From positions 38,564,001-38,628,000 of the forward strand of contig CM060734.1 in NCBI GenBank assembly GCA_030704615.1: DNA of 64,000 nt. The letters are read 5' to 3'. This stretch comes from Takakia lepidozioides (lineage: Eukaryota > Plantae > Bryophyta). This document shows positions 8,274 to 63,503 of this stretch, piece after piece; the stretch's first letter is position 1, and each line of letters opens with the position of its first letter. Position numbers and translations under genes: made by a program. The notes under the pieces are model-generated. The model was given only the letters and a program-made list of their open reading frames with translations, did not search any database and had not been told where the DNA came from.

Positions 8274-8525
8274 ATGACCCATCTTGAGTTCTCCCTGGCC
8301 TTGGCACATGCTCTCACGTCACACCCTGGAGTTGTTGTGCACTCGAACAGGGCCATTGTGTTGTCGTGCTCGCCTTCGAGATGGCATTCGTCTTTGCACA
8401 GTCCACTTCGTCGTGTGTGCACACAATGCAACATGCGGACTCACTACTTTTGTCCCCAGTGTGATAATGCTTTCTTATGTCTTGGTTCTTGTTGGCGTGA
8501 AGCACATCTCGTGAGGAGAAGGTGA
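8274..8525 (+). pseudogene. piggyBac transposase C-terminal fragment with Cys-rich zinc-binding domain
   Basis: MTHLEFSLALAHAL...RRVCTQCNMRTHYFCPQCDNAFLCLGSCWREAH matches the PGBD4-type pattern CxxC-T-Y-CxxC-LC-xxxC-(F/W)xxxH, preceded by the F-xx-LA-xL helix. Confidence 0.75.
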
Positions 8526-10570: not shown

Positions 10571-11200
10571 AAATATTTGGAAGTTAGTGTCACCATCGGT
10601 GTTGGTGCAGCAGATATAGACGTCATAGAATTTCATGGACCGCGTATGCATCTCCGGATTGTGTGCATTGGAAAGGGTTGACACACTATTTCACCTTCAC
10701 CTGCAAATAGTTTGTACACTTTATGTTTCTAGCTTGTTGATGTTAAACAGGTTCATTACAAAGCCCTTTGTGGAAAAGACCTACACACTTTTATTGGGAT
10801 GGTTGGTTACTGTTTAAAGAATATCAACAAACCTGGTTTCAAATTCGTACATCACAATATCAGTGCCGAACAAATGCAGAATGGGCTTGATGAGTATGTC
10901 AAGTACGGCGCTTCATCAATTAAAAACCGAGCGTGTCTCACACATCAAAATCTACTGGAACACGCACAAATGTGGTCGAAGCACAAAATGAGAAGGCAAC
11001 TTGGTACTACCTTGCCCGTGTTCTATTTAACATGTTGAAGTCTAGTCACGTTATCCTGCAGCATCTTGGGTCATTCCGTTTAAAAATAACGGCATGGACT
11101 TCAACATAGCTCAATCGATCTGGAAGGCAATGCATGTGTTGGAAATGGTAGATGTAGTATGGATTTTTTTGGAATGTGGTACAGCTAGTTCCCGTTTACA
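10571..11200 (+). mobile_element. Replitron-like HUH endonuclease relic
   Basis: Frameshifted reading EVSVTIGVGAADIDV...FMDRVCISGLCALERVDTLFHLHLQIV (HUH motif at 10692-10700)...KALCGKDLHTFIGMVGYCLK (catalytic Tyr at 10808)...HNISAEQMQNGLDEYVKYG..KNRACLT. This matches the Replitron HUH motif order as I recall it. Element ends not identified. Confidence 0.7.
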
Positions 11201-11493
11201 AGAATTGTACTGTACTAAGCTTGCAGACAAAGCTACTGTTGAATTGGGTCTGTCCAGTTCTGTAGATTCCATACATAGTGTAGTTACTCCAATGCATATT
11301 TTGGTTGTTCAGCAGGTTCCCTATATCCCCGTCTTTGGCAGAACACTCGTCGGAATGAGTATGGATTTTAGATTAGTATATTTGTTTCCTTTCGTTCTTT
11401 TATACCCTTGTAACTTTCAAATGTTTATACTTGTAAATAAAGTTCCGGACCATCAAGTATTAAATCAAAGCGTTAATAATCTACAAATATTGA

Positions 11494-15691: not shown

Positions 15692-15931
15692 GGTACCAGG
15701 ACAACAGTAAGGACACAGCCAGCGGCAATTCAAGAATCATTTGCTCCCCCTTCAGCTTAAACAACCTCCCCAGATCTACTAAGCTAAGAAGGTTAGTCTC
15801 TCTACAACATGGTACCAGGACAAAAGTAAGGACACAGACGGCCGCAATTTGAGAATCATCTGCGCCCCCACTTCACCTTAAACAACCTCCCCAGATCTAC
15901 TATGGTCAAGAAGGTAAGTCTCTCTACGCAT
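15692..15931. repeat. Diverged tandem duplication, period 119 bp, downstream of the DEK1 stop
   Basis: ggtaccaggaca...aaacaacctccccagatctacta...tctctctac starts at 15692 and again at 15811. Confidence 0.85.
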
Positions 15932-16387
15932 CTCCTTAGCTGTTGTGCATGTGATGCCCTCAATAAGACTTACTTGAGTCGGCCACATCCAGGGTTTGAT
16001 TGTGCAAAAGTACGGACAAACAGGAGAAACAATGATACCCACAACAGGTTATTGTATTCAAGGTTAATCAGCCACTGTACCTATACCCGTCATCAAAAGA
16101 TACTGCAGATGTGGTGATTGAAGAAGGTAAAGTTGAGCACAAACCTTTCAGTAAGGCATACATTAAGTGTCAGCAGAAAACCACAACAGAGACTAAGAGC
16201 TTTTTCTTAAGGAAATAACCAGAAAGTGCACCAAGTGGAGGAAGTAATACCTGCTCTTGACAATTCAGTAGAGTAGGAGTGACTCCTGCACAAAAGAGTG
16301 TTGCTCCATCCCCAGAAAGAATTGCACATAATTGTCACATCCACTTCAGGAGCCAACCCCACATCTTGTTCATTCAGTGGTACTCTA

Positions 16388-31300: not shown

Positions 31301-33271
31301 ATAACAGGGGACAAAGGCCCAGCCGGCGAAGGCAGCCTCAAGCATAATTACATCTCTACAGATGGGAACAGGCACCTGACATAACTATGCCACATGGTTG
31401 CAACAGAAGATTAAACACATGCTGCTGATGCCTTACCTACTGAACAAGAACACCATAGAGATGGCAAAGCAATTAAATAAGTCGGATACTATACAAGTCT
31501 CAACTCAGTTCAAGGACTGCCCAATAATAGATTTAAACGACATCCCAACAACCAGGTGACTGAGATGTGAGTGGGATCAACAACATACGCGAGCTTTGCC
31601 ACTGTGTTCTCCACCAAAGCATAATGGCATAAAATGCCAACAGTAGAGCAGTGCCCGGCATGACCACAGCAAGGCCAACTGTATCGTGGTCCAAAAGAAG
31701 AATCAGCCTTACTCCCCAAAGAATCAGAACCACAATTGGAGACAAGACAGTTGCCCACGCAGCAACCGAGAAAATTCCTGAAATAATACTTAGCTGGGGG
31801 CCTTGCAGATAATTTGCCCACTTCCGAGCATAAACCCAACTGCAAAAGTGCAAACGAAACCCCAAGAGAGGAAGTACGGATTAACGTTCCAGCACTTCGA
31901 TAATACAAATGCAGCGCACTATCTGAGAATCCATATGCAAGACAGAAACTATATCATCAGTACCAATACACACCAATGCTCGGAAGGCCTAGATCTGACT
32001 GAACATGTCTGTGCTCTGCAATAGCAGCAGCAGATAACCTTGGAAGAAGAGAGTGATGGCTTTGAATGGAATGAGATTAGAGCTCCAGAAGACACTGCCT
32101 TCCAAAAACTGGCCCCAAACCTAGAAGTTGAGGTCCAGCAACAAGGTAAAGTGTATGACAGCTTACATGCAATTGAACTTACACAAGGGATTTCAACACT
32201 CACAAGCTTCCACGACTATTCAAGATTATCTGAGGGAAAAAAACAGCCTAATGTCCCGTACATTAGTGACAAGGACATCATTGATGATAGCACCTTTAAT
32301 GATCCATCATTTTTATACCTATTCATGGTTCGAGTCTGACTCATGCACATAAACGTTACTGAGAGCGGATCAAGACAACACCAGGCTTCCCAATCATTTA
32401 TGAGAGGTATTCATATGACATCACTATCCCTGCTCAGACACTATGATTCATTGGAGTCTGAGTTACGGACTTCACAGAGAGCAGATCAACAGAACACTCG
32501 GTTTCTCAATTGAATCAGTCTCTTTCCACACCATAAGAGTACTGCATATGGATAGATAGGCCCTATTTGAGTTTTAGATAAGGAACCCTCTCACATTTCA
32601 AAGGAAAAGTGACCTGCACCTATGACTGCAGAATGGAGGAGAAGATGACAAGACGTGATAATAAACTGAAACAGCATCAGAGGAAATGAGGCTAGTGTAG
32701 GTTTCTCTATTCATAAAAGGTAGTGCTTTCTGTTCACCCTCTTCCAAACTTCCCTGCTGCCAAACTGTAGAAGCAATTGTGATTATCTTGCAGCTCGATA
32801 TCAGGACAAATGTGGTACTGTCTAGCAGCTCGTTCTCTCGCTCTCTCTCTCTCTATCGCTCTCTCTCTCAACCTGAGTCTGCTTGATTACCAAGGTATTA
32901 GCTGTCCAAGTAGATAATGCCATCGTGATCTCTTGAGAAACAATACTCTCGAAGGATTTCTTTGACAGCCATTGCAACGAATGGACTGAATTGACGAGGA
33001 AGATTATATGAGGCTTTGTTCAGCTTTTGCAGTACCTCACGGACGAAAGACAGATGAATGTTTCCAACTTGTACCATGAAGCAAAATGCCAGATAAACTT
33101 CACCTGCAGTCAGAATCAGGTGGAGGAGTACCTGTAGATTCTCCATGGGCGCCAATTTACAGCAACCAGAATGGTTACTGAGAGTGCGCTAAGCACACAA
33201 AAACTTGCGCCAAATACAGCACAGGCTATGACAACACTGTGCTGGTCTCCTCCATCTAAAGAGACCCCCAT
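16388..33271 (-). CDS. DEK1: DEFECTIVE KERNEL 1 phytocalpain (membrane domain, loop, linker/LG3, CysPc, C2L), 30 coding exons
   Basis: Exons: 33271-33132, 31839-31589, 30916-30734, 30478-30343, 29919-29789, 29392-29278, 29043-27978, 27099-26989, 26716-26658, 26298-26121, 25794-25521, 25119-24969, 24832-24721, 24605-24440, 24033-23963, 23711-23620, 23454-23292, 23088-23017, 22803-22426, 22308-22193, 21866-21569, 21224-20905, 20455-20092, 19759-19439, 19295-19191, 18984-18856, 18390-18010, 17775-17638, 17318-17082, 16696-16388. N-terminus MGVSLDGGDQHSVVIAC...VNWRPWRIYSW. Catalytic triad QGRLGDCWFL, QGHAYS, IRNPW. Ends ...FTKASISLEPL*. Confidence 0.97.
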
Positions 33272-43812: not shown

Positions 43813-44467
43813 ATGGTCACAAGCAATAGGGCAGTGAATACCTCCACGCCTAATGAATAAGATGACAATGCACATTAGGAAAACCTTAGCCATCACAATT
43901 TGAGTAAACATTTTTGTTGCCTTCGCAGCCATGTCTGTGAATCTTCATAAATGAAAAAAAAATGGTTGGTCTACTATACTTACACAGTGTCAAAAGACTC
44001 TAATAGGTCCAAACACGATCACTGTTGCATCTAGTCATGCCAATTAGAAAGTATTGACATGAGTAATTATAATTTGTGTACAATAGAATAGCGTGAGATA
44101 TAGCATAAACTATTTAGAACATCAACCACAACTCATTTTTGCCCTAATCGACAGAGCATTTTTCCATTTGCGGCTTGTTTTACTAAATACATGATTGAGC
44201 AGATGCATAGTACAGGCAAGCCTTGCCCTCTTGTTATACGAGCCCCAAGACAATGGAGTTTAGGAAAAGACGTCTTTCTCAATATTGCTCATTATTTCTA
44301 GTGAATTCAAACATATATCACACAACTACTTCATGAAAAAGGTATAATTGAGATCACTTCTTACAGCTGTGCTCAAACTATATCCTTGTAGGTACGAAAA
44401 TGCCTTAAAGATGAATCTCACTCTAAGGCTCAATAGTTTTCCTTGTAATATCCACTCTACTTCTCCC

Positions 44468-45056
44468 TGTCAAGGACGAGAACATAACTGAACACAAACA
44501 AGAGATCAGACTAGAGGTACAAGACTAGACAAGAAGTCAAGGTCGGCGTGGCCGAATGTACGATGAGTAAATAAGAATCAAGACGATCTTTATAACAATG
44601 AACAAGAGTACAAGATATTGGAACACGACTTGAATATTGGAATGCTGGAAACTGGACTGGAGTACCAGATATTGGAAACTGGGCTAGAGTACTGGGAACT
44701 GGAAACAAGAGTAGCTTGAACTGGTGTTGGCAAGACTGAAGAGTGTCCAGTCTCACCTCCTATGGAGGTTGTTTGCTGGAGAAGTTTCCAAGATTAAACA
44801 AAGGTTTCTTGATGGAGAAGCTTCCTTAAACAAATGAGGTATCTTGATGGAGAAGTTTCCTCCAAAGGAAGCTTCCTGAGTAGTTTTCCAAGTTACTCTT
44901 GGTAATTTGATAAACTCCCGGTAACTTGATAAGTAATGGTAAATCATGGTAAATAATGATAAATCACGGTAAGTCATTGTAACTTTTGGTACCATGGTAA
45001 CTTGGTAACTTCTGGTATTTCCTCCTGGTAAGTTCATCTGGGCTATGTCCGTGACA
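44468..45056 (-). repeat. 3' LTR (589 bp)
   Basis: Aligns to 50219-50842. I counted 9 substitutions in the first ~290 bp (8 transitions), plus a 43-bp deletion and an 8-bp insertion. Confidence 0.95.
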
Positions 45057-45110
45057 TCACCCCATCCTCTAGCGCCGAGTTCCTCGAGGACGGTAAAATC
45101 TTGGACTTGC

Positions 45111-45512
45111 TTAGAGTTGGAGAAAATCCAAAATCCGACGAATGGTACTTGCCAAATATTCGGCTCTTCGTTCTTGACTCAAATGATTTATAGGTCCCTG
45201 CAACCATCGATAGTGTCCAACACCTTGAACTTGGGACCACGCAGTGATTTGAGCATTCTGATTTTCGAAGCTGCATTCAAACATGATTTCGTTGCTTTCT
45301 GGGTCCGAAGCCTCAACCTCCAACAAAATTATCAGACTTCGAGTAGGCTCCACTTGCCGTCGTACGGGGTTCAGACGAGGAAGTACGCGTCGCATTGGTG
45401 GCCCATCGTCTCGAGAGCGTCGGCGTGATGTTGAAGGTCGTGAGAATCGGAATGGCTGATCTGGTAGCTGGGTAAGCGACAACTCCAATGTATCTGGTTC
45501 ATGTGACTCCAT
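45111..45512 (-). CDS. Accessory ORF of unknown function between pol and PPT (133 aa, MESHEPDT...LDFLQL)
   Basis: Open frame within ORF 45111-45620, preceded by TATA motif CAGTATATATAG at 45561-45550. Confidence 0.5.
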   Translation of the reverse strand: MESHEPDTLELSLTQLPDQPFRFSRPSTSRRRSRDDGPPMRRVLPRLNPVRRQVEPTRSLIILLEVEASDPESNEIMFECSFENQNAQITAWSQVQGVGHYRWLQGPINHLSQERRAEYLASTIRRILDFLQL

Positions 45513-45658
45513 ACTGCCAATACAAGATGCAAGAGTGCTGGAAGTGTAGCTATATATACTGATGTGTGGGGCTCCTCCCTCCTTAGCGTGTATCAGGTAC
45601 ATTGAATGTGGAGTCTTCACCTTGAAGCTAACTTGACTGGCATCATCGTTGTGACGTC

Positions 45659-48600
45659 TTATTGACGTGTAGCTCGGGGCTTAGCTGGATATCGTTGATG
45701 AAACTCTTGGACTTTGTTAGATGCATTGGCGAGATTGGATGAAGGTTCCCACGTTCGTTCACTGATGTTGTAGCCTTTCCAATGTACGAAATACTCAAGA
45801 CGTTTATACTTGATGCGAGAGTCTAGGACTTCGTCGACTTCATACTCAAGTTCTTGATTGACTTCGACTGATGGAGGTGGTACGGAGACTCTCCCTGGAA
45901 TATTCGATGGATGATACAACTCCAATAATGAAACATGAAAGACTGGATGGATGCGCATACTTCGTGGGAGTTCAAGCCGAAAACTGACCGGATTTATTTG
46001 TCGAATAATTTTGAATGGTCCCAGGCGTTGATAATCCAACTTCCTTGATGGTCGCGAGGTTTGTATGTCTCGTCGAAGAAGCCACACACGATCTCCGACC
46101 TTGAACTGGGGTTGGAGTTGGCGACGTTGATCTGCATACTCCTTGTATTGTTTTTGAGCTTCTGCGAGGTAGAATGTAAGCTCCTTGTGAATCGTAACAA
46201 GATGAGTAGCAAGGTTTTATACAGCAGGGCTTCCAACAGTCTTCATGTGGAAAGGGTTTGCTCGAGGATGATGACCATAATTGGAGAAAATTAGAGTTTG
46301 TTGGATCAAAGAATGTATAGTGTTGTTGTAGGCAAACTCAGTCAATGACAAAACGTCCGTCCAATTGATAATTTATCGTACATCGAAGATACTGCTCCAA
46401 AATCTGGTTTACACGTTCGGTTTGACCATTAGTCTGTGAATGATTAGTTGTAGAAAGGTTGATCTTAGTATCCAATATGTGAAATAATCCCCTCCAGAAA
46501 TTTGATATGAACTGTGGTCATCGATCAGATACGATGTCCTTCGGGAGTCCATGAATGCGGTAGATATTATTGAGGAAGAGTCTTGCAGTTTCCTCGCCAG
46601 TAACTGTCTTATTGCATGGAATGAAATGTGTCATCTTCGTAAAACGATCTACAATAACAAGGATTGAATCAGTGGTCTTGGAGATTGGAAGGTCCGTAAT
46701 AAAGTCCATAGACACGGACGACCATGGACCCTTGGGAATGGGTAATGGTTGAAGGCCGTAAGGTCGATGTCATGGTCTCTTCGCTCTAGCACACGTGTAA
46801 ATTCTTATAAATTCTTTCACGAGTTTCCACATCTGCGGCCACCAATAGTCCCTGGATATCAATTCCATTGTTTTGTTGAAGCCGAAATGTCCTGCAGCCG
46901 GAAGATCATAACATGTTTGAAGAATTCGAAGTCGTGTAAGTCCTGGAGGTACATAGAGAAGTCCCTTGAACTAAAGTAAGTCATCTTTGAACTCCAAGTC
47001 GTTTGTAACATGTGGGTTGTCTCGAGGTCGATTTAGTTGACTTCGTAGTGTCATAGCGAATTGGTCACTCTTTAGTGCTTCCTGAATCTCCTTTATGATC
47101 TTGGCATCGTCATAGGTGGACATGGATAGCATATTCAATTGGAGATTTGTTGGTTTCAAGATGATGGATTTCTGTTGGTCAAAAGCTGCATCATCTTCTT
47201 TTGGCGCAATATACGATTGTCGAGAAAGAGCATCTGGTTTTCCTTGAAGATGTCCGAGATGGTAGGTAATAAGAAAATCAAACCTTGCTAGTGACATACT
47301 CCATCTCGCTTGACGTCGATTCAAAACACGAGCACTCATAAAATATTCGAGGTTTTTGTGATCGGTATAGACAGTGACCTGATGTTTAGCTCCCTCCAAT
47401 AGATGACGCCACTCCTCAAAAGCATCGATAATCGCTAGAAGTTCTTTATCATGGATTTCATAATTGATCTCCGCAGCGGAAAATTAGCGAGAACGAAAAC
47501 CAACAGGGTGGAGTCGGCCATCTGTACCGTATTGTGAGAGTACCGCGCCAAATGCAAAGTCCGATGCATCTGCTTCTAAGAAGAATGATTTAGATGGGTC
47601 TGCATGTACCAGTATTGAAGCCGTTGTAAATGCCTGCTTCAGCCTTTCAAATGTCTGGTCAGCCTTCTTGTCCCATACAAATTTGTCCTTCCATGTGAGT
47701 CGTGTCAATGGTGCAGCAATTTTGGAGTAGTCATTGATAAAGATTCTATAGAAATTTGCAAAACCCAGAAAACATTGTACATCTCGGACCGAAGTTGGTT
47801 TAATCCACTCGATGATGGTTTGTATTTTCTTCTGATCCATAAAGACGCCTTTGTCGGAAATAATGTAGCCCAAAAATTCGACCTCAGATTGATGGAAAAG
47901 ACATTTCTCTAACTTGGCATATAGTCATATTTCTCTTAATTTATCAAGGACAAGGCGTACATGGCGGCCATGTTCTTCTTTGTTCTGTGAAAATATCAAA
48001 ATGTCGTCCAAATAGATGACTACAAATTCATCTAAAAATTCTCGCAAGATGTCATTCATCATATGTTGGAAAATTGCTGGAGCATTTGTAAGACCGAAAG
48101 GCATAACACTGTATTCAAAATGTCCATACCTTGTTCGAAAAACTGTTTTTCATTCGTCTCCTTCTTTTATCCGTACAAGGTTATAAGCTCCTCTCAAGTC
48201 GATTTTGGTAAAAATCTTCGCTCGTCCTAGCTGGTCGAGAAGCCCAGAAATCAGCAACAACGGATAACGATTCTTGATTGTGACTTTGTTGAGACCGCGA
48301 TAGTCGACACACATGCGTAATGATCCGTTTTTTTTTTCCACAAACAAGATAGGCGCCCCCGCGGATGATTTGGAATGTCGGATGAAGTGCTTTGACAAAT
48401 TTTCATCAATGTATTCGCGTAATGCAACCAACTCCGTCTGGGATAAGTTATAGATTGGGCCGAATGGTGGTTGGGCTCCTTCTTGTAACTCAATTGCACA
48501 GTCATAAGGTCGATGTTCTGGCAATATGTCTGCATTTTTCTTCTCGAAGACATCTTTGAAATCTTGATATTGAGCGGGTAATGTTGAAGTATCTTTGTCT

Positions 48601-49172
48601 GTTGTGGTCTTGATCGGAGTCGCATAAATTGCAAATGCCACCTCCTTTTTGGTAGCTCTCATGAAGGCTCTAGCTCCAAGAAACAGGGGTTGAATACCTT
48701 TGGTACTTTTGCATTTTTGTCTTGACGAAATTTTTCGTGATTGCCAGTCGATGTCAGGATTATGAAGTACAAACCAGGGAAGTCCAAGGATCACATGATT
48801 CGTTGGAGACTGGATGACATTGAAAACAATCTGTGATGCTTGATTTTTAAGCTTCACTTCAAAGGGTCGAGTTTCATGGTCAACATTTCCTGATGCTAAC
48901 GGTCGTCCATCGATAACTTCAACAAGGGCCGAGAATTTCTTTCTTACGAGCGTTAAATTGTGTTGCTTCGCAAAGTATTTGTCACTAAAACACGCTGAAG
49001 CGCCCGAGTCCAAAAGTGCTTCTACGGAGATATCTCGATTTTGCATCCTGATCTTTACTAGAACTGTGAAACAAGATACAGGGTCTGGAAGTAGAAAGAG
49101 ACATTTTTTTGGTGAGGAATTTGGGGTGTCCAGCCGCATGGTCCCTACTGTGACTGGACATCTTCGTTTTCC
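45659..49172 (-). pseudogene. pol (protease, RT, RNase H, integrase, chromodomain), disrupted by stops and frameshifts
   Basis: [10 protein letters not shown]; [11 protein letters not shown]; YLDD near 48005; EADASDFA; VYTDHKNL; SMDFITDLP; GPFKI; EYEVDEVLDSR...YFVHWKGY...TWEP. Confidence 0.95.
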
Positions 49173-50180
49173 GACCTCCTCGTATCGAACACTTGAGTGG
49201 TACCCCGAGCTTTGAATCTTCTCTTGTTGGGGCAGTTTAATGCCATGTGATCATTTTCTCCGCAATAAAGGCATAATCCATTCGAGCGTCGTCTTTGTTT
49301 TTCATGTGGCGTCAATGGCTTGAATCGGACAGCATCAATCATTACCGGATGTTTGATGGATCATTGTATTTGGTGTCGTAGTAACAGCGGCATGGTGCGT
49401 CGTCGACCATCTAGATCGCTTCTCTTGACGTCTTTCGAACAAACGATTATCGCATGCAATGACTTGGGTGATGAATTCGCTCAGTGTACTCACGTTTGGC
49501 ATTGTCAGCAACAAATCTTTAATATCATCTTTTAGGCCACATCGAAACTGACTAATAAGGCTCTTCTCATTCCAGTCAAGGTCGCACGTAAGTTGTCGAA
49601 ATTCGGCAGCATAAACGGAAGCTGGACGTGCTCCTTGTCGAAGATTTCGTATCTTTGTCTCTGCAACTCTCTCTCTATCATTCTCTCCAAACGTTGCAGT
49701 GAACTCGGACATGAACGCTTCAAAATTGTATAGTAAATGCGAAATTTTCTCTAATAGCGGTGCAAACCAAGATAGGGCAGTGCCTGATAGAAGGGTACCC
49801 ACGAATCCCACTTGAATACCTTCATCAGAGTAGTGTTGTGGATGTAGTCGTAGGAACAATCGTACTTGTTGAACAAAACCGCGAAATCTTGATCTCGTCC
49901 CATCAAATTTCTCGGGCATGCTGACATTTGGTTCCCTTGTAATCTGTTGAAGATTTGGAGGAACCGTTGCAGTAGGATTTGTTGTAGTAGGGACTCGTAA
50001 GGTTGAAGATCCATTGTTCGACTCCTACAACTCTGAAATTTGTTGTTGCAAATTGTTGAGAGCATTGTCAAGGTCTTGAGACTGATCAGCTTGTAGTTGG
50101 GCAGTAGAGGCACGAAGTTCTTGCATCTAGAACTGAAGACTCTGCAATGTGGCGACCATTTCCGCAAATGTGCCTTCCAT
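49145..50180 (-). pseudogene. gag with CCHC zinc knuckle, disrupted
   Basis: MPEKFDGTRSRFRGFVQQ..., [29 protein letters not shown]; premature TAG near the 5' end and a frameshift near 49340. Confidence 0.9.
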
Positions 50181-50218
50181 CTTAAGTAACTAAGGAACAA
50201 ACTTGAATTTCGCCAAAC

Positions 50219-50842
50219 TGTCTAGGACGAGAACATGACTGAACACAAACAAGAGATTAGACTAGAGGTACAAGACTAGACAAGAAGTCAAGGTCGGCGT
50301 GGCCGAATGTACGATGAGTAAATAGGAATCAAGACGATCTTTATAACAATGAACAAGAGTACAAGATATTGGAACATGACTTGAATATTGGAATGTTGGA
50401 AACTGGACTGGAGTACCAGATATTGGAAACTGGGCTAGAGTACTGGGAATTGGAAACAAGAGTAGCTTGAACTGGTGTTGGCGAGACTGAAGAGTGTCCA
50501 GTCTCGCCTCCTATATATACTGGCTACTAAGAAGCTTCCCTAAGAAGTTTCCCCTATGGAGGTTGCTTGCTGGAGAAATTTCCAAGATTAAACAAAGGTT
50601 TCTTGATGGAGAAGCTTCCTTAAACAAATGAGATATCTTGATGGAGAAGTTTCCTCCAAAGGAAGCTTCCTGAGTAGTTTTCCAAGTTACTCTTAGTAAT
50701 TTGGTAAACTCCCGGTAACTTGGTAAGTAATGATAAATCATGGTAGATAATGGTAAATCACGATAAGTTATGGTAACTTTTGATAACTTGGTAACTTCTG
50801 GTATTTCCTCTTGGTAAGTTCTTCTGGGCTATGTCCGTGACA
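50219..50842 (-). repeat. 5' LTR (624 bp) with TATA box at 50512-50519
   Basis: Matches the 3' LTR; followed on the minus strand by a non-tRNA PBS-like sequence gtttggcgaaatt. Confidence 0.95.
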
Positions 50843-51350: not shown

Positions 51351-52889
51351 AGAGGACTGTTAGTCAAAGGCTTTTGGAAGAAAAACCCAAAACCTTCCAA
51401 GCTCATACTATGGAGTTGCTCCTATCTCTTTTCTTTTTCTTTTTTTCCCTTTTGTGGTCCTCTTAATTGTGACTCTTTGGATTTATTTTTCTTTTTTCTT
51501 TTTTTCTTTCTGGTCCTCTTAAAATCTTAGTATATCATAACTGAAAATCAAGTTAACAAGCGGCTCGTCGCGCGTAATAGCTCCTCCTTTTGGTGACTAC
51601 CTATTAGAGTATTATGATGATGTTATATGTTGGTAGCAAGAAATGTAATTAGGTAATTTTAAAGCAATAAATACAGGTTTATGGTCCGTCCAATATGCTT
51701 ATGTAACGTTGGTGACGTGCATTTGTCCAAACATGGTCTAGTTGAGATCCATAAATAGTAATAGAAAATATTGTTGGTTTTTTCAGTCGACTCGTAAAAG
51801 TTTTATATATGTCTATTTCTAAATAAATTCGTCGAATGAAGTATTGTATTAACATTCATTTTATTTAGTGTATCAAATATATTGTTTGTTATATTTGCAT
51901 ATCGTCTTGTAGTCATCTAAATCTCTAATCATCATCTAAATCTTGTTGAAAAGGTTCTAAAACCTCAGTTGAATGCATGGGGGTAATGGATAATGAAACC
52001 GGCATACTGCTTGATTTTTTTTGTACAAGCTCGTTTGTGTCGATGAATAGTTAGAATTGTAAATTATAAATGATATTATATAAGAAATATATGATAAATA
52101 ATAATGAAAATCTTAAGAGTATATGAAATATTTAAAAAATTTGATTTTACAACGTTAATGTTAGTAGATGTGAAATGGTATATAAATTGATGGATTTAGA
52201 GGAACTTGAAGGGATCTAAGATCTGAAAAAACAAGAGATTTTAAAAAATATGAAAAATACGGACACTATTAGACTGAAAAAAATCCTTTCATAATTAAAT
52301 ACTTAAATCAAAATAAAAACCTATATTTATTTATATATAGATATATAACAAATTTAAGAATAATTGGAAACTGATAAATATGAGTATTGTTTTTATAAAA
52401 TAGATATATTGATTAATTATAATTTTGTTTTTAATGACAACAATTTTGTTTTCAAGAAGATAACAACAAATTAACAACTAAATGAGTTTATAATAATTGT
52501 ATTAACTTCTAAATATGAAAATATCAATACGATAAAGACTTAATATATTGAAATTAAATTTATTTATTTATTTATTTATAATAAAAAAAATATTTTAATT
52601 TACAACTTAATTATTTGAAAAACTAATTCTTCATATATAAATTGATGGATCTAAAGGGACCTGAAGGGATCTGAGATCTGAAAAAACTAAAGGTTGTCAC
52701 AGTGCATTACCTATGATCGCAGCTCGGCAGTGTGTACAAACTGCCGCACTTTCTGCCAGGCTGTATGCATGCATCCAACCGCCCCAAGATGTGGACTTGC
52801 AATTGTCGTGCACCTAAGCATCGTGCCACAACATACATTGCTGTCCATCACACATTCTAAGCATACAATTCTAGAAAGTTATGCCACAA

Positions 52890-53256
52890 TGATAATGGAA
52901 AGTGAACACAATGGAATCCCTCTACTCATGAATCCACTCAATCACATAAACTAAGTCAAGCCAATTGCACCCTTGCTAAGGGAATCCACCCTACAAAGCC
53001 CTCACCACACTCCCTCTCAATACTTAGAGCTATGGAGGTGAGAGAGAGACTCATGGAGGCTCAACTACAAGAAGATGAGTCCTCCTCAACCCTCACAAGG
53101 GGAAAATCCATCCCCATGTCCCAAGTGAGGCTTGACACCTCACTTGGCATATGAGACAATGAAGTCTCAACACGCAAAATATAAATACGAATATCTAAAG
53201 TGTCCTAGTTAACTAGAAATAGGTAATTCTAGTTAACCATGACTAAAACCATGACA
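52890..53256. mobile_element. Solo-LTR-like insertion (TG...CA, 367 bp) inside the LTR of the DNMT element
   Basis: tgataatggaaag...aaaaccatgaca, flanked by 85-bp direct repeats 52804-52888 and 53259-53343. Confidence 0.55.
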
Positions 53257-53613
53257 GCTGTCGTGCACCTAAGCATCGTGCCACAACATACATCGTTGTC
53301 CATCACACATTCTAAGCATACAATCCTAGAAAGCTATGCCACAATCGCCCCCTAGCTGGTGATTAGGTCCCTCTAACACCGGATAGCCGACAAGTATCCA
53401 TCTCAATAAAATCATTGTTTGGTCTTCAATCGCACAAGTCCCAACATCTAAAGTCGATAGATCAAGAGGCCGGGTGCAAAAGTAGCCCCATCATTAGTCG
53501 TCTTTCTACAATCCATGATCTTCAGTTAAGTATCCATGGCATTGAAGCCCCACTAGCTAGGCCTTGGATCACTTGTCAGTCTCACCATTGTCATACCCAC
53601 TACCTCTGTCCAA

Positions 53614-53749
53614 AACATCGTGGACATAACCACTCTCCGCTAGCAACCTCCTCAAATGGCGGTGTTAAACATCTTATGTGCCACCCCCTTGAGCATTTGT
53701 CACACACCAACATGGTTGCGGCACCACCAGCATGCCCACATAGTACGCA
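53614..53749 (-). other. PHD finger at the integrase C-terminus
   Basis: CVLCGHAGGAATMLVCDKCSRGWHIRCLTPPFEEVASGEWLCPRC, a complete C4HC3 pattern. Confidence 0.92.
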
Positions 53750-56305
53750 ACGCAACCCTGCAAGTACCACCGCAAGGTTAGGATCTATCCTCTCATCCAC
53801 ATGTGGGAGGTGACATGGCGCACAATTGCGCACATGGTCCTTCCATACCATGCCATCTCGACCTTCCAGAATCAACACTCCTGAAGGTAACACCTCCCTG
53901 ACCCTTAGAATCACACATCATGTTGTGACATCCAAGGTCGTAGGTGCTGTCTGCTACAGACACACATAGTCTCCAGGGTTGAATCTCCGAACATCCGGTC
54001 GCTATCCGCCTCCACGTATGGTGACATACCTCAATGTGTTTTGGTGTTGGGCAATAGTAAGGTTCTCAAAAACCATAGGCATGACTCTCTTGAACAACTC
54101 TGCCCGGTGGTCACACGCTTGTGTCCACACATTTGGATCATCAAGGTCAAGGACTACTGCAGCCTCCCTGCAAATAGGCAAATCTGGCTCTCGGCCGAAG
54201 AGAAGAAAGTAAGGTGAGAAGGAGGCAAGTGATGCTTCGTTTGCTGAACCTGTAGCCCATAGCCAACCAAGGTAGCTGAAGGTCCCAATCTCCCAGGTGT
54301 CCCTTCTGCAAACCGTACTTGCGCAAACCCCTCTTGACTGTCTGAACAACTCTCTCCGCCAAGTCATCAGCCTCGGGATGATCCCGAGAAATAGTGCAGT
54401 GATCTATCAAAGCTTGCTCACACAAAGCCTGAAACTCCCCCAAGAACTATCTCCCCTGGTCCATGATTACCTCGGCTGACGCACCAAATTGGCTAAGCAC
54501 TCGATCTAAGAATGCATACGCAGCCCCCTCACTTGCCTTGTCAGGCAATGACACCAGCTCAATCCATTTGGAGAAGTATTCCACCATCACCAGCACATAT
54601 TTGTTGTGACGCATCGTCAGTGACAATGGTCCCGCGAAGTCAAGACTCCATCAATATCCCAATCCCATGATGGGTAAAGGATGCAATTGTGGAGTAGGTG
54701 CATTAAATGAAGCACGCACCTATCACACACCATGCACATTGTCACTAACTGTTGCACATCTGTGTGCATGCCCCGCCACCAATACTGCCCTTGCAGCAAA
54801 CTATAAGTGCGCCGCATCCCAAAATGTCCCAACTCCTCATGGGCATGGCGTACCAATCGCGCTCGTTGTGTTGGATGAGGCACAATCCTCACTCGTCCAT
54901 CCTCCCATATTCAGAGAAGGTGAGTCCCCTCCCACTTAAACCTCTTGGCCCGTTGTAGGATCCGATCTCTCTTCTTAACAGTCACACTGGCTGCTGTCTC
55001 TCAGGTACGAAGGTAGGCCAACACTGTTGCATCTTCATGCACATCCTTAGCACCACCAAGCTCCTCATTGATCTCTGGATCGTCATGCACACTATCTCCA
55101 TGACCAATCACATGGGATGGACCAGCTTGAGCTCCCATTGCTAGAATGCACAAAAAGGTAGATGCATGTCATCCTGGCACCATCTCCTCATCTGTCTCAC
55201 CATGCCACCGAGCTTCAGTATCATCATGTTCGCTCATGCATGGATTACGACTCAACCCGTCTGCATCCCGATTGACTACACCGGCTTGATGCACCACCTG
55301 GAAGTCATACTCTTGAAGAATAAGTGCAAGCTTCCCTGTAAGCTTGTTTGACTCCATCAACCACTTCAATGGTTGGTGATCCCTGACAAGGGTGAAGAGA
55401 TTATCATAGAGGTAGCATCTAAAATGTGCCATTGCCCATACTGCAGCTAGACACTCCCCTTCATATGAACTATATTTCGCCTCAACATCATTATTCGAGC
55501 GGCTAACATATGCCACTACGAACTCTCTTCCCTCATCATCCACATGTGTTGGCATTGCTCCAATCCCCAGCATACTCCAATCCGTATGTAGCTGGAAAGG
55601 CCGCCTCAAAACAGGTGCAGAAGTTAATCGAGCCTTAAGTTCCTCAAAGGCTTCATCCTGCTCCTCCTCCCACTGCCACTCCTGACCCACCTTGGTCAAC
55701 TTAGTAATAACCTTTGCAATGCTGCTAAATCCCTTGACAAACCGTCGATAGTAGTTTGCCAATCCCATGAAAGTGAACTCTGCTAATATCTATGGGGCGT
55801 GGAATGCGTGCAATGGCCTCCACCTTCGTCTTTTGAACACCCAATCCTCCAGGGTATATCATGTGGCCCAGATACTCAATCTGGCTGTGCAATTTCAACC
55901 CATGCGTTCTCAAGCGTTCAAACACCACCTGAAGGTGTCTCTCATGCTCCTCAACCGTGGCACTAAAGATGATGATATCATCAATGTAGCACCGGATAAA
56001 GTCTAGCCCCACAAGAATCTTATCTATGACCCTCTGAAACTCTAAAGGAGCATCTTTCAACCCAAACGGTAGGAACCGCCATTGGTACAAGCAATCCTTC
56101 CCATGTTTGTCAATCCCCCATAATGTCGTCTTTTGCTTGTCAGCCTCTTTGATTGGCAACTGGTAGTAACCGGATCGCAAGTCCAATGTGCTAAACACCT
56201 TTGCATGCCCAATGGCATCAAAAATCTCCTCTGGAGTTGGCATGGCATATCTATCAGACTTAGTCTGATGGTTCACAGGACGGTAGTCCCCACACATCCT
56301 CTTTT

Positions 56306-56487
56306 GGGCATGGGTTGTGTTCAATTGCAGGAGTAAGAATCTGTGATAAGCTGCACACTAAGAGTTTGGGTGGCGTAGAGATAGTAGAAAGGTGCTTTAT
56401 TGGCAGCTGCATAACTAGAACCTTGGACTGGGGTCTATGGCCTTTACATCTAATGTCGGCTTATGTGTTGCCCTTCGGCAGTGTCCC
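56306..56487. mobile_element. About 180-bp insertion interrupting RT
   Basis: Splits KKDIYGNWL / KRMCGDYRPVN; ends GGGCA...TGTCCC are short imperfect inverted termini. Confidence 0.6.
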
Positions 56488-56829
56488 TTGAGCCAATTGC
56501 CATAGATATCCTTCTTAGCTGGTATCACCGTTGCCGAGGCATACTCCCCACCTGACAACTCCACCAATCCAGCTTCGAACAACTCCATAGTCCGTGACTG
56601 GATCAAAATCCTCTCCATGTCACTATACCTGTAGGGCCTTCGAATAATTGGCGTGTCACTTGCCAAATGAATACAAATCTTCTGGCCCTTCAAATTCCCC
56701 AAATCCTTCAAACCGAAGGTAAAGCAATTTCTATAAGCCTTTAGAAATCGCTGGATCCTCCATCTCTCTCCTCCAGTGACTGTAGGTCCGATATCTGGTT
56801 CCGAATTGTCCTCAGTGACTGCAACCTTG

Positions 56830-57720
56830 GGTTCGGCGTGATGCCTCTGATAGAGCTGGCACAGCTGTAGTGCCGGTGGCAAACCCCATTGCGTGTTCTC
56901 ACTCATCCGCATTGGGCTCCACCAATTGCTGTAGCACATTGTCTCAAATCAACCCAAGACCATTGTCTCAAAAAGCATGAGACGAGGGAAATCTCATGAG
57001 TGTAGGCAAGGCTGTACGTGGCTGCCCCACTCAATTGACCACCGTCAAATTAGGTGGACGGTCATCATGTCGCACCCTTTGTGGTTGTTTCCCTTGGTCC
57101 AAAATGCCCTCAACCGTGAGATTGGGTGGCCGTTGAATGGAATTGTATGCTCTCTTGAGCAGCTCTGGTGGTGCAAGATTGGTCCACCACAATCGAGGTC
57201 GATGCGCCCGTGATCCCACCGCTGCTGCATCCAATAGCACGACCGATCCAATCCACGACCGCACCTGATGCACATTAGTCATAACTTTGGCCCGAGAATC
57301 CCCCATGAGAGGAACATTCTCCAAAATGTAAGCTGGAGGTTGCACTTGCCTCACTTGCAAGTCACGCAACACTCGCAACATCTCACAAAACAGATGCGAC
57401 CTTGCATCATGCAAACCATTACCATGACCTGCGGGAGAATGTCCTTGGCAAGGCTACCCTGCTATCACCAAGTCAATGGGACCATGCCGGTCCAAATCCT
57501 CCACCCCCAGCAAGGTAATGTCTGCTGGCAAGGCTTTTGATACCCTTGAATTGCTAAGAGAGACAACAACTCAGGATACCGGTGTGTGAGCAAGGCATGT
57601 GGCGCATAGAAATACGCCGAGCAATCTCATCCTTCTGCGTACTTTAATCCTAGCTTGCAACACTCCTGCAAGCCCAGTGCTCATGCCTCCAAACACTTCT
57701 AGCAAACAAATCTCTGAGTC
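56830..57720 (-). pseudogene. DNMT3-like C5 cytosine DNA methyltransferase domain within retrotransposon pol (inactivated)
   Basis: Motif I ICLLEVFGGMSTGL; II (partly deleted) KDEIARR; III PADIT; IV PIDLVIAG*PCQG (TAG at 57456-57454, probably from TGG); V GLHDARSHLF; VI YILENV; VIII LDAAAVGSRAHRPRLWWTN; IX EPNADE*EHAMGFATGTT...SEASRR. Motif X is missing. Confidence 0.92.
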
Positions 57721-60700
57721 AGGTGGTTGCTAGGTAATGGGCACTGTGTCCAATGGAGCTAACTGAGGAGGTCCCTGGAGGCGATGTCACTGAATTCCCC
57801 TCACCCACCAATGGAAAGGCCTCCTGCCATGCTTGCTGCACACACTCGCATGCTACTCGATGCAAATTCCCAACTGTACCCCCACAGTGAGCTATGCATA
57901 GGCACATGAGGAAGCAACTCAGCCTTCTATGCCAATTGCTTGTCCTCATCAGGTGGTATTCTATCATCAGCATGGCTATTGCCCTCCAAGAGCTCACCAC
58001 CCCAAGCCACCACCCCTGATAATGTAGCCAATGTGGGCATCATGTTCCTATGATCCACCGCTACATTCCCAATAAACCGCACTGGGAACAGTGCACGTCG
58101 GCCATCTCCTGACTGCCACTCCGGCCTGTAGGATGTCGTTTCCTCCCAAAAGTCCAGAGTAAATCCCATGGAATACAACACAGCCCCACCAACAAGCACA
58201 TCATATGACATCGCGTCCGTAACAATGGCTTTAGCTCTCATGACTGAGCCGTCCGTAGGATGATCCGGCTGCAATCGAATGAAGAGTTTATGGCGTGTAA
58301 TCCCTCGCGCCTTCTCTGAACCACCTAAAAATGTCTGAATCTGGAAAGGGCAAGGCTCCAAACAATACTCGCAGTGGCCTATACCTCCTCCCGGTTGGGC
58401 CACCAACTGAAACACTCTATCCTGCTTGTCCACCAGGACTACCCCAGGAGTCATCATGCTGCGCTCAATGGCTGGCCTAGCTGACAACTTCTGCAACCGT
58501 GCAGCTGCCGCTTGCCATGGCGCAGCTGTGGCTGATTTCACCCTCGAATCTAAGGCATCCATAGACTGCACCATCTGCTATCCCTGCAGATAGTGTCGAT
58601 GCATCACCACTCTCACAGAGTTTAGCTGCTAGTCTAAACACAACAGCTGGCCGAATCCCCGTCATTGCAAAAAACAATGGAGCTTGACAAACCGCCGTAG
58701 CCGCCCCCAACAATGTACTGGCTGCATTTTGCTATGCAGCACCACCCACTGGCATTTCCTGAGCCATGTCAACTCTCCCCATTGGCACTCTTGCAGGCTC
58801 TACCTCTGACACACTTGGACGAGCCGACACCATCGATGGTGTGGTTGGCACTGTCTCGGCCCATGTGAAAGACTGGGGAAGCCTTGTCTGTCGACTTGCT
58901 TCCCCTCTCTGGGGATCAAAATCCATATCTGCTCCCCTTGGCTCAGGAGCACGAGTTGTTGCTCGAGTGACAACAGCTGCAGAGTCCATATGCAATGGTC
59001 TTGCAAGTGCGGCTCCACACATGAAGCCCATACCAATCTGGTCTTCCTTAGGCATATGAGGTTGTGCAAGTGGAGCTTGAGCCTCAAGCCTTGGGCTGGT
59101 GCAACATGAGTAGTGGCCATGGCAGCAAGACGTTGCTCTAGCTGGGCAAGTCTATCCACCATGCCTTGGTCTTGACCTTGACCCTGACCATGTGCTCCTT
59201 GGTGTTGCTTACGACCTCCACCACAACCTCTGCCTCCTCTACCTCTCTGAGCTACATTGCCTCGTCCTTGGCCACCATTGTTCCATTGGAACTGGCCTGG
59301 TCGTAGCTCAGGATGCAGGTCTTAACAATGGGCCTCCCCATGCCTCAAACTCTCAGTAGGCTTTCGCTGGAACTCTTGCAAACTCCGCAACTTCTCCGTT
59401 CTCACCCCTTGGTAGTTCCTTCTCAACTCTTGGAAGAACTCCACAATTGGGTTGAAGGCAGGCATAGGTGTTGGTGCAATGGCAGGAGCTACAGTGGATG
59501 TCCCAACTAATCCTGATTCACTTGTTCCACTGCTGCTTGCAGAAGCCGTTGGTGTAGCTGCTGTCGTTGTTGTCGTGGATCTTGCTGCTGTGCCCCTAGT
59601 AATGGAGACATAGTCAGGTGACCAATATTGTCGCCACTCCTCAATCTCCACCTCATTTCCCCGCCTAAATTCATGGTAGTCGTCCATGGGCGGCCCTTCA
59701 AGGTGCTGGAATAGCTCCTTCCACGCCATAAAAGGCGTAAACAATTGTGGATTACGCATTTGCTGCAAATCACACCAACTATCAAACTCCTGTATGAAGT
59801 CATCAAGCTCGATGGTGCCCACAGCTCCAGAGTACCTACGTAGCCCCTTGGTAGCTCCATACATCTCCTCCATCGTGTCCCACAACAATGGTACGGAAAT
59901 GGCTTGCACCCTCGGCGAGAATCCTCCTGACTCCGAGTCTGACTTCTCCATGATGTTGGATTTCAAGAGCAAGGCACTAACTCAACTTCATGGAGACAAT
60001 CAAAGCGGGATCAATTTCTCAGAAGACACCGGAGGTGAAGGTGGCCTAAACCACACACCTCGTCTTGTGTACCCACTAGTATTGCTGGTGCTCGCACCGG
60101 CACTCCCCTCAGCAACTGGTGGCACCTCCGTGATGAAAACTCACAACCACACCTATTGTAAACATGTCTCTAATCCCCCTCTCCACAAGGTAACCGGGTA
60201 GAGAACCTGTTGCGGCCTATGGCTTAGACTAGTATTAGGTTCGTAACATAAACCTGCATCTGCATCTGCATCCACCGCAAACACTCATATGGTCTGCTGG
60301 TCATCAACCCAGCCTCACCATAAGATAAACTATGATGGTCTGACTAGTCGTCACCCCAGCCTCACCACCGACAGCACGCTCTAGGATTGGCCGGTGATCA
60401 AATCCGGACCAACCTCCTATGAAAACAAGCGCCCACACAAAACTGACATGGCGCACAGTCAAGCATGCAGATGTGGGGGGGATCCAAACACAAGAAAATC
60501 AAGACAGTAACTCCCCCACACCAAAAAATATTCCACAGTGTCGCTCCTGCAAGGACACCCCAGCCCAAACCCGGACTGACTCTTGCCTCTACCTACACAG
60601 AGGTGTTGGCCTACACAGAGGGTGGAAGACTACGGGGAAGATAGACTAAAGCAATTCCTAATCCCAGAATGCTCTCATCCCACTAGTCTCCCCGTATCTC

Positions 60701-60839
60701 TAAACGCTCTTGCTCATGACCAACAAACAGGACTACCTTCCAGGATCTCTCAAATAACTTTCCAAGAACCCTCAAGATGTCTCTCAAACAATCTCACTAA
60801 GGCCCCCAAAGCCTGTACAATTGGACTCCAAATAGTCCA

Positions 60840-61115
60840 CCAAGGCCCCAAGAGCCTGCCAAATCTTGGCCCTCAAGGACCCCAAATAGTCCTTCAAACA
60901 AGTCGCCAAAGACTCCTTAAGCTGGCCAAATATTGGCCTCCAAGGACCCCAAATAGTCCTCCAAATAGCTCTCCTACGGCTCCAAATGTTTGCCAAATAT
61001 TGGTCTTCAAGGACCCCCAATAGTCCTCCAAACAGTCCTCCAAACACCCCTTCAAGAGCTCTTCAAGTGTCTTACAAAAACTCCTCAAAGGACCCCCCAA
61101 AGATCCTCCAAAGGC
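60840..61115. repeat. Degenerate short tandem repeats (ggacccccaaatagtcctccaaa-like), probably retroelement UTR
   Basis: Motif recurs about 5-6 times. Confidence 0.7.
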
Positions 61116-61192
61116 AATACTCCTCCAAATACACCATAGATGTCATACACTTGTAATGAAAACGTATGGTGGGCAAAGTCTCTCCACTTGTA

Positions 61193-61386
61193 TCCATACT
61201 CTGTTCACAAAAGTGTATGTTGGGACAGAGGGAGTCCATACACTGCTCAAAAAACGTATGTGGGGCAGAGGGGGCCCATACACTGTTGACAAAAGAGTAT
61301 GTTGGGCAGAGGGGGCCCATACTCTGTTCACAAAAGTGTATGGTGTAGCAGAGGGAGCCCATACTCAGTTTGTTGAAGTGTATGGA
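61193..61386. repeat. Tandem array of 40-42-bp units with internal dyad (CCATAC...GTATG)
   Basis: Units start at 61193, 61235, 61275, 61316 and 61358. Confidence 0.85.
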
Positions 61387-63503
61387 GACTAGGGTTTGTA
61401 GAGTATAGTAAGAAACACCATACACATGATTGCTCATGATCCATGCTTCTACCCCAAGCCTTAAGGCATTTATTTAGTGGTGAGAAACACCTTCTTCATG
61501 GTATCTTCCCACCCTAACATGCATGCAAGATTGCATTGTCTTACCTTGCAATGCATTCATCACAAATTGACAAGTTCCTCTTGATCTCCTTGGAACTCAT
61601 AGCAAGATAATGTGCCCAATGACAAGCGCCAAGCCTTGCTTCAATTTGAATTTTGTATGCCATCTTCCATGTGCTTCCCTTTGGGCTAGTCATACACACT
61701 TCCACCTCTTGACCTAGGTGTTGTCTTCATTCACCATAATGTGTATCCACACCTCAATTCAAGAGCTCATCTTCTCAAACTTGAAGTCACAAGCCCTAAA
61801 GAGCATGTTTCACATAAGCATCACTTGCTTGATCAACCATCCACCACAAAACTTAAGCAAAAAGGGAATGAATACATGAGCTTCACCTTCCTCTTCCTTG
61901 TCTTGTCACATGCTAATGTATGGTTGAAGTTGTTATGCACGCCTTGAGCCACAATCTCCTTTCTTCATGAAGACCACCTCCAATGATCTCCCACATGTGC
62001 TCCAAGCTCTTCAATACTCTAGGCTTGGTTTCACATCATCATGGATAGAATTCTCTTCTCTTTGGAGTCATCTTGAGCTTCTTGATGCTCTCCAAGTGGT
62101 TGTTTTTGTTGTCTTCAAGCCCTAGCCTATGTAGCTCCTTGGCTTTTCAGCTTCCACAACTGCATGCACCACCTCATACACAAGGAATGAACTTGCTCAC
62201 GTCACCTTCTAGCTCTCCTCAAGCTTGAATTGGAAGCCATTCCCTAAACTCGTGCACATCCGAGCCAAATCTCTCCTCGCCTTCCAGATGCGGAACTCTG
62301 GACACCAGAGGCCTCCGCACACATGCTGACAGCCCTGGCTATCTTGTTGGGATCCCTCGATCTTCTTACAGCTTGCAACATCAACTCAGACTTATCGGGA
62401 CCATTGCCACCAACGCCACCCCGCAAGAACTCCCGATATCTCGTTTGTTGCTGTAGAGCTCGTATTTGATCAACTTCCCGTCGATACCGTAAACCTCTCT
62501 TTCAAGGAAGCCACTGGAAGCCTCAAAGTGCATAGTCCCATGACTTGTGTGTGGATTCTTGTTACAAATGACTGTGGGGATTATATTTCTACGCCGTTAG
62601 AGTTCGCACCGATACTAACGAGGCCATCCTGTCATCGTCTTCTATGTCCCAAACCGTTAATATGGAAGGTTGAGCCTAAACCCAGATATTTGAAAAGCTG
62701 ACATACCGTTAAAGAGTCTTCCAAAAACAGTTGTTAAGCAGTTATGTGCCTATACCGACCCAAGTGAAAAGATGGCGGAGGCGAAAGTATTGGAATCCAA
62801 TGTCATCCCAACTTGTTGAGGCACATGGAAGCCGACAATGCAATATTGAGTGCAGGGTTGTAGAAAATTCGGCGGAGAACCAATGATACGTGGCATGTTG
62901 TGCCGCATATGAAGAGTTCAAACCGGGAAAAACCAGCAGAAGCTAGCCTAATAACTCATCCATCCAAATCGAATTTATTAACCAAGCAATAGTAGTACTA
63001 ATGGCCATACCTAACTAGTTCAAGACGGCGGCCACTGCCGAAAGGACAAATGTGCATTTGTGAGGTGGACACGTATGCCATGAACACATGCATAACGAGA
63101 TCGAGGCCCCGGCTGGTACTAATCGCACGACGTCTCGCAGCCCAGTAGTTCGTGATATTAAGCTGGAGAGTATCAGGAGACTGAGTTCCCAACAAGAGAG
63201 TGGAAGACGTAGAAGATAGTATTCTTTTTTCACTTCAGCGAGAGACAAGAAGAAGGCGAGAGAGAGAATGAGAGCTCGCAAGCTCACATGACGATGAAGG
63301 AGATAGCAGAGGAGAGCGCGGCCCTGGAAATAGCACATGGCGGAGGAGGACCAGCCGCGCGGAGAAGCTAGTGAATGAGGGGATGAAACAGCAACAGAGG
63401 GCGACCCTGACGACACGGACACAGAGGAGCCCGACACCCTTTTGAGGAAGCGCAGGAAAGGAAGGAGAACCAATATATATATATATATAATATTATTTTC
63501 CAC

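Follow-up and report, generated by a model that had tools for sequence, protein, structure and literature searches.

Why would a transposon carry an enzyme of the kind that silences transposons? A locus in a land plant raises this question, which is testable in Marchantia with existing mutants and methylomes. The locus lies in what we call the window, the whole 64,000-nucleotide stretch of Takakia lepidozioides DNA that was analysed, and a sequence-only reading had proposed here an LTR retrotransposon with a DNMT3-like DNA cytosine methyltransferase (DNMT) inside its pol. Our analysis confirms a decayed Ty3/Gypsy element with the order gag, protease (PR), DNMT, reverse transcriptase (RT), RNase H (RH), integrase (INT) and PHD finger. 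The explanation that we consider probable as a whole is that of a high-copy Gypsy family with the methyltransferase between PR and RT and a PHD finger in addition, whose cDNA is likely methylated by the element itself. Within this explanation, we place high confidence in the domain order, its conservation, purifying selection, kinship with a Klebsormidium element, split repeats, TG...CA ends and 4-bp target duplications.

The methyltransferase domain occupies 56833..57720 on the minus strand. Read as 57720-56815(-) with stops written as X, the region matches PF00145 at E 5.9e-13 (49.4 bits against a cut-off of 22), as the sequence-only reading had led us to expect. The nearest solved structures are DNMT3A (E 1.7e-9), followed by DNMT3B/3C and then by the bacterial HaeIII and HhaI, and a family profile searched against structures likewise ranks DNMT3A (E 7e-16) ahead of DRM-type enzymes (4e-9 to 2e-7) and HaeIII (3e-6), bearing out the proposed DNMT3 type. 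In the usual numbering of C5-methyltransferase motifs, motifs I to IX are all present, almost all of them in a single minus-strand frame from 57720 to 56833: EVFGG of motif I at 57699-57685, the catalytic PCQ at 57453-57445, just where it had been placed, ENV at 57321-57313, motif VIII (DAAAVGSRAHRPRLWWTN) at 57231-57178 and motif IX at 56898-56881, with motif II falling between two compensating frameshifts (about 57630-57530). Unlike in DRM, the motif order is unpermuted. The structure predicted from an intact homolog has low confidence (mean pLDDT 58), with Foldseek top matches that are all DNMT3; the target-recognition region is poor in this model and lies outside the profile alignment to DNMT3A.

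The window copy of the element is dead. Its DNMT domain has five in-frame stops, and motif X is deleted along with most of the DNMT-RT linker, homology stopping at 56833 and resuming at about 56800 in RT. Motif X is covered by 59 family copies, and the expected complete fold thus exists in the family but not in the window copy. Stops account for six of 290 DNMT codons, one of the six being an artefact of a short stretch in the wrong frame, against 14 of 1669 other coding codons (Fisher p = 0.10), so that DNMT decay is not significantly different from that of the rest of pol, in line with what had been claimed. Taken together, the data support a DNMT3-type, intronless domain integral to pol, and no captured spliced host gene.

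On either side of the domain, the remainder of the polyprotein follows on the same strand. The N-terminal part of gag (59343..59980(-)) is 61% identical to residues 1-172 of Marchantia Mp4g09160; about 170 gag residues including the zinc knuckles are absent at 59343, where contigs have loose ends, and the next match to Mp4g09160 is at residue 342. A frameshifted gag C-terminal remnant with the gag-protease linker (58573..59342(-), from tblastn of P0004) precedes an aspartic protease remnant, itself frameshifted near the active site (57940..58500(-), 43% identity to P0008 residues 104-309). The protease remnant has no Pfam match in the window, and the matching regions of Klebsormidium P0208 and of P0133 give a weak Asp_protease_2 match below the cut-off. 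Beyond the methyltransferase lie RT with YIDD (55782..56801(-), PF00078 E 1.8e-23), RNase H (55229..55639(-), PF17917 E 4.6e-26), the integrase with its zinc-binding domain and rve core (54234..54919(-), PF17921 E 2.3e-15 and PF00665 E 1.8e-12) and the C-terminal PHD finger (53603..53770(-), PF00628 E 2.2e-10), such that PR-RT-RH-INT with a DDE integrase stand in the canonical Ty3/Gypsy order. The window RT is split by an insertion of about 190 bp at 56300-56493 that is absent from other copies and over which contigs jump (56300/56305-56493). PDB matches of the PHD finger are to CHD4, KDM5B/5A, PHF21A, BAZ2A, UHRF1 and AIRE, and most of these fingers read unmodified H3K4.

Contigs of four public runs were mapped on the window, and their depth, summed in run X1 and not to be read as a copy number, reaches 47,000-490,000 on 52703-60722, compared with about 660-2,000 in the left flank and about 930-960 at 62728-63500 outside the element. 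At the right end of the element, depth jumps from about 800 to about 219,000 in the bin that begins at 52703, and this pile-up marks a high-copy family. Over the DNMT bins depth is about 70,000-74,000, roughly a quarter of that over RT-INT (206,000-490,000), and it dips likewise over the N-terminus of RT, over PR and over the gag linker. In each of two runs, one contig joins 53444 to 60211, a junction that suggests a non-autonomous derivative without any ORF.

The window family is old, high-copy and found in non-seed land plants. Protein searches returned 21 longer and 66 near-length homologs that are 37-75% identical, with Marchantia polymorpha, M. paleacea, Calypogeia fissa, Riccia sorocarpa, Sphagnum troendelagicum and S. 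fallax among the named sources. The best M. polymorpha homologs share 57-59% identity, the gene model MARPO_0091s0058 unites DNMT, RT and RH, and Marchantia copies of the family are annotated as ordinary genes (e.g. Mp4g09160, Mp8g17980). Among viral contigs, 30 pattern matches included no relative of the family. We further fetched 80 metagenome loci (L-numbers) via their DNMT, 75 of which belong to the family; L078-L080 are unrelated prokaryote-type methylases and served as outgroup only. As the loci were fetched through DNMT, copies free of it could not appear among them. PR lies upstream of DNMT in 52 of the 58 loci with room upstream, RT lies downstream in 54 of the 60 with room downstream, and both flank it in 40/48 at near-constant spacing, a fixed and intronless placement that upholds the reading of DNMT as an integral pol domain. 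In several loci (e.g. L003, L012, L023, L032) PR to INT runs in a single frame with stops present. A stop-free ORF across PR-DNMT-RT occurs in none of the family loci, all of which are decayed; P0133 is an uninterrupted 2188-aa zf-CCHC-PR-DNMT-RT-RH-INT protein, and the expectation of one continuous PR-DNMT-RT frame therefore holds for this protein and fails in every metagenome locus.

Purifying selection is apparent at several levels of divergence. Among 63 distinct copies the dN/dS of DNMT is 0.47, below one as had been predicted, and 0.41 on codons shared by three or more copies; the corresponding values for all and for shared codons are 0.50/0.56 in PR and 0.35/0.18 in RT, and on shared codons DNMT exceeds RT, RH and rve (0.41 vs 0.18-0.28). 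Decay after insertion inflates all of these within-family values, of which the 0.41-0.47 for DNMT is above the Ka/Ks < 0.2 published for the Klebsormidium element KnitGypsy-Dnmt3 (PMC5890265). Between diverged copies dN/dS is about 0.13-0.17: the DNMT of the window compared with the loci gives dN 0.33 and pS 0.74, that of L032 compared with the rest gives dN 0.31 and dS 1.8, and identity between the window and L032 is 0.66/0.81/0.39 by codon position. The catalytic Cys is kept in 63/64 copies and the Glu of ENV in 59/64.

The ends of the element have a layout of their own. At the 3' end of the window copy an 87-nt repeat, B, occurs twice, 455 nt apart: B1 (53259..53345(-)), which ends in ...CACGACA, is identical at 83/87 positions to B2 (52804..52890(-)), the right end of the element by repeat comparison and by the jump in contig depth. 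Between the two lies repeat A2 (52891..53256(-)), which starts with TGTCATG, in the same arrangement as in L036, L054 and L062. These three loci have the full layout A1-ORF-B1-A2-B2, with A of about 340 nt and B of about 113 nt, and B1-A2-B2 is present in the window, L015 and L064. Upstream in the window we found no A1 (best score 32 against a shuffled maximum of 36) and no primer site; the stretch upstream of gag at 60723-62326, which is repeat-rich with 67-nt and 41-nt tandem units and has an X1 depth of about 10,000-27,000, may be a 5' leader or another repeat replacing A1. Related elements begin with TGTCATG and end with CACGACA, and the 4-bp target duplication is perfect in eight of the nine loci with both ends and has one mismatch in the ninth. 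The left end is thus A and the right end B, without two identical LTRs at both ends, and because the repeats are split the family is not a canonical LTR element; from the original designation as an LTR retrotransposon the Gypsy gene order stands, and the canonical LTR pair does not. Such elements would escape LTR finders whose search depends on a target duplication around two terminal LTRs.

Further details of the repeats constrain how this layout could arise. None of 23 A1 copies has B upstream, and A1/A2 and B1/B2 are alike in divergence (5-9%). Clear right ends show a single B without A2-B2 in 12/17 loci. L024 (single B) and L064 (B1-A2-B2) have a common right flank, so the single-B form can be secondary, by recombination, or an assembly collapse, and an origin of single-B elements from one-repeat circles, which we had considered, is unneeded. 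The B1|A2 junction is a palindrome, GACA-GC-TGTC (53253..53262), that we propose as the integrase attachment site; it is shared by the window, L015, L022 and L054, with variant spacers in L036, L062 and L064. GC/AT differences between these spacers were discounted as covariation, as deamination could produce them. Right before B1, a block ending in a G-rich purine tract (53346..53378(-)) is near-identical in the window and five other loci; it is conserved between window and loci although the repeats have diverged, and is likely a polypurine tract. The 11 nt after A1 are unlike a tRNA primer site and are complementary, with at most one mismatch, to positions ~158-169 of A in 15/23 loci (19 distinct sites), against 0/92 control 11-mers, at a site 31 nt downstream of a TATA-like box; this evidence, like that for target duplication, comes from one closely related set of loci, the window host copy being without A1. 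Inside repeat A of L054 (1830-1860), a second primer-site 10-mer lies just upstream of the predicted start, with a hairpin across the U3/R border. L046:7707-12570, L047 and L007/L013:5332-5454 are rearranged copies with inverted internal pieces beside partial A/B repeats.

From this arrangement we lean, if only slightly, towards a replication path of self-primed cDNA, circularisation and integrase cleavage at the B|A palindrome. In this path, transcripts would begin some 170 nt inside A1 (A+169), and their 5' ends would self-prime, as in Tf1, by annealing to the 11 nt that follow A1; plus-strand synthesis would be primed from the purine tract ahead of B1. The resulting cDNA would carry two B+A repeats and circularise, with A2|B2 as the end-to-end junction; opened by the DDE integrase at the B|A palindrome inside U3, the circle would then be inserted as A1-ORF-B1-A2-B2. 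We infer circularisation because the integrated form is a circular permutation of the cDNA expected from the primer site and the purine tract. Cleavage of a palindromic circle junction is known from foamy-virus integrase (PMC1180852); we found no literature on self-priming combined with circle-junction cleavage, and, among the matches listed for split repeats in Gypsy elements, none describing this layout. A serious competitor, at somewhat less than an even chance and independent of the alternatives considered below for the domain itself, is that strand transfers directly make a linear A-ORF-B-A-B cDNA without any circle opened by integrase. The TG...CA ends and 4-bp duplications suit ordinary linear-end integration equally, and no circle was observed. 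However, given where the primer site (after A1) and the purine tract (before B1) lie, ordinary priming would place the cDNA ends at the start of B and the end of A, unlike the integrated ends, and it is precisely the start of B and the end of A that are joined at A2|B2. If true, the circle model would link LTR-type and DIRS-type replication.

As for what the enzyme does, a co-packaged methyltransferase would mark the element's own cDNA in cis, such that new copies arrive already methylated, and the PHD finger would tether the complex to nucleosomes with unmodified H3K4, much like the ADD of animal DNMT3. We give this putative function, cDNA methylation in cis with PHD tethering, an even chance. 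Cis marking of cDNA has been proposed for algal elements, and SymbioDIRS-Dnmt3 methylates CG de novo (PMC5890265). In the same work, the KnitGypsy-Dnmt3 domain gave no methylation in yeast, a result that its authors call inconclusive, and human DNMT3B likewise failed in that assay. The inactivity of the Klebsormidium domain in yeast could instead mean that the domain is kept for a job other than 5mC, be it RNA methylation, which de Mendoza et al. raised for a LINE-borne DNMT (PMC5890265), or binding and shielding of cDNA; we consider this unlikely, as copies of the family and their algal relatives alike have kept the catalytic Cys, ENV and motif I and as the negative assay extends to human DNMT3B. 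Improbable, too, is an active enzyme aimed mainly at host chromatin around the insertion, or at the genome in trans, in place of the cDNA. A PHD finger resembling readers of unmodified H3K4 would bring the enzyme to chromatin if both were in one complex, and two Marchantia gene models give, as annotated, a gag-PR-DNMT protein that stops soon after DNMT. These models are decayed copies, however, and their ends therefore prove nothing; selection on a selfish element would be expected to favour cis effects, and K. nitens, which has such elements, shows an ordinary methylome (PMC5890265).

Beyond bryophytes, a full HMMER scan with DNMT gave 496 clusters at E up to 1e-10, in which domain mapping distinguished two pol layouts, PR-DNMT-RT (42 rows) and RH-DNMT-INT (81 rows), with 125 fragments in neither. 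Named algae with the first layout are Klebsormidium nitens (GAQ93235.1), several Closterium strains and Mesostigma. GAQ93235.1, a partial protein without RT that our layout probes left in neither group, is zf-CCHC-PR-DNMT by Pfam and 35% identical to the window domain, and from this domain order we take it to be a KnitGypsy copy. A sister group has the order RT-RH-DNMT-INT-PHD (L075:828-5789, P0131, P0119, P0188, P0228 and others); Scenedesmus sp. PABB004 is the only named RH-DNMT-INT member, and L075, of this type, has 62% GC. The two layouts are unmixed in a DNMT tree of 175 rows, which excludes rows shorter than 200 aa, short fragments from bryophytes and six rows from Marchantia. In a careful tree of 47 hand-picked rows, whose bootstrap was not fully settled, a 100/98 branch splits them, and the window DNMT and GAQ93235.1 fall on the same side with PR-DNMT-RT rows only. 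A quick RT tree groups 54 DNMT-bearing RTs against six DNMT-free Gypsy RTs (SH-aLRT 91) and has one clade each for the land-plant group (100) and for RH-DNMT-INT (98), the latter type being monophyletic in both the RT and the DNMT trees.

Judged by its side of the 100/98 branch and its domain order, the window family is the land-plant branch of KnitGypsy-Dnmt3, described from Klebsormidium by de Mendoza et al. (2018). The sequence-only reading, which had cited that alga, thus overstated its case in suggesting a separate land-plant kind; since the family is the same, the finding is a range extension, which takes DNMT-carrying retrotransposons from one alga to land plants, the model Marchantia among them. 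Since the lineage appears to occur in both streptophytes and chlorophytes, the capture of DNMT is probably ancient. A single capture in the green-plant ancestor is what we infer and not what the trees display, because the root of the DNMT tree (three prokaryotic rows) is unreliable and host DNMT3s, none of which is among the 150 best matches, are absent from the trees. That absence and the somewhat denser, though not significantly denser (p = 0.10), DNMT stops do little for the idea that the window copy alone, in a single event, captured a host DNMT3 transcript or took up a nested insertion, a scenario of very low probability that is refuted by related loci carrying DNMT in the same place (40/48), by the same order in liverworts, Sphagnum, Closterium, Mesostigma and Klebsormidium, and by congruent RT and DNMT groupings.

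A more sweeping reading is possible, which we regard as doubtful. It would posit an unrecognised Gypsy lineage from the green-plant ancestor that had one capture of DNMT3 and one change of its place in pol (between PR and RT in streptophytes, between RH and INT in chlorophytes), and whose self-primed cDNA would be circularised and opened by the DDE integrase at a palindrome inside U3, a route undescribed for LTR elements. With the PHD finger, the enzyme would form a portable unit that reads H3K4me0 and writes 5mC, and the lineage would until recently have been a major repeat in some bryophyte genomes.

Comparison with described systems places the range-extended family more closely. KnitGypsy-Dnmt3 of K. 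nitens, reported to combine Gypsy domains with DIRS-like repeats (de Mendoza et al. 2018, PMC5890265), has in common with the window family an intronless Dnmt3 domain in a Gypsy pol, purifying selection and DIRS-like split repeats; the window family differs in residing in a land plant and in being very abundant in its host. The available text of PMC5890265 makes no mention of a PHD finger, ends, target duplication or priming signals for KnitGypsy-Dnmt3, and its species table, as available, includes Selaginella and Physcomitrella and has no entry for Marchantia or Sphagnum. Elements of the PAT/Ngaro group of the DIRS order, including SymbioDIRS-Dnmt3, share the A1-B1-A2-B2 split direct repeats (PMC4157794), and SymbioDIRS-Dnmt3 also has a Dnmt3 domain in pol, whereas the window family encodes a protease and a DDE integrase and shows 4-bp target duplications. 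Membership of the DIRS order was rejected, given an rve integrase and no tyrosine recombinase match in the frames scanned. Tf1/Sushi and the plant Tcn1 chromoviruses share a non-tRNA primer site complementary to the predicted RNA 5' end (PMC6317226), and the window family differs from them by its PHD finger, its split repeats and its lack of a chromodomain. The Chlamydomonas element Gypsy-7a_cRei, compared by description only, is likewise a green-lineage Gypsy with a PHD in the polyprotein (bioRxiv 2022.06.16.496473); its available description lists no methyltransferase and gives near-conventional LTRs. The Phygy non-chromoviruses of Physcomitrella are bryophyte Gypsy elements whose size is similar (mean 8.6 kb) and whose target duplication is also 4 bp long; they are described with a tRNA-Trp primer site and an NCGN target preference (PMC6317226). 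On that description we set Phygy apart, as 0/9 window-family duplications are NCGN and no tRNA-Trp primer site was found. Troyka, with CG...CG ends and, by its available description, restricted to animals (PMC12440569), is unrelated.

In the literature searched, with subscription journals and Repbase outside its scope, we found no description of the family from an embryophyte or chlorophyte, and the claim that it was new to land plants holds to that extent. PMC12344493 and bioRxiv 2026.05.21.726589 speak of 'streptophytes' in citing de Mendoza 2018, a wording that could hide awareness of land-plant copies. Retro-DNMTs go unmentioned in the available text of 10.1101/363937, 10.1101/2021.02.12.428880, PMC9915684 and PMC12885004.

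Other features of the window fit its land-plant setting or add to its repeat content. A PEBP/MFT gene at about 5500-6530(+), with a PF01161 exon, and a multi-exon calpain gene of DEK1 type at 16390-32300(-), matching PF00648, support the land-plant setting claimed from these neighbours, which we take to be MFT and DEK1 on recognition of their sequences. At 44467-50842(-) lies a near-complete chromovirus-type Gypsy element, presumably Tcn1-like, with LTR blocks that are 94-97% identical and with gag, protease, RT and a chromodomain; its RT-INT is about 30% identical to that of the methyltransferase-bearing element. Direct and inverted repeats are tangled around a chromodomain-bearing integrase remnant at 11470-13040, next to a fragment of a Replitron HUH endonuclease at 10733-11035(+) (PF21859 E 4e-8). 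Finally, a Cys/His-rich C-terminal fragment at 8259-8522(+), whose only match is a weak one to B-box below the cut-off, presumably resembles the end of a piggyBac-type transposase.
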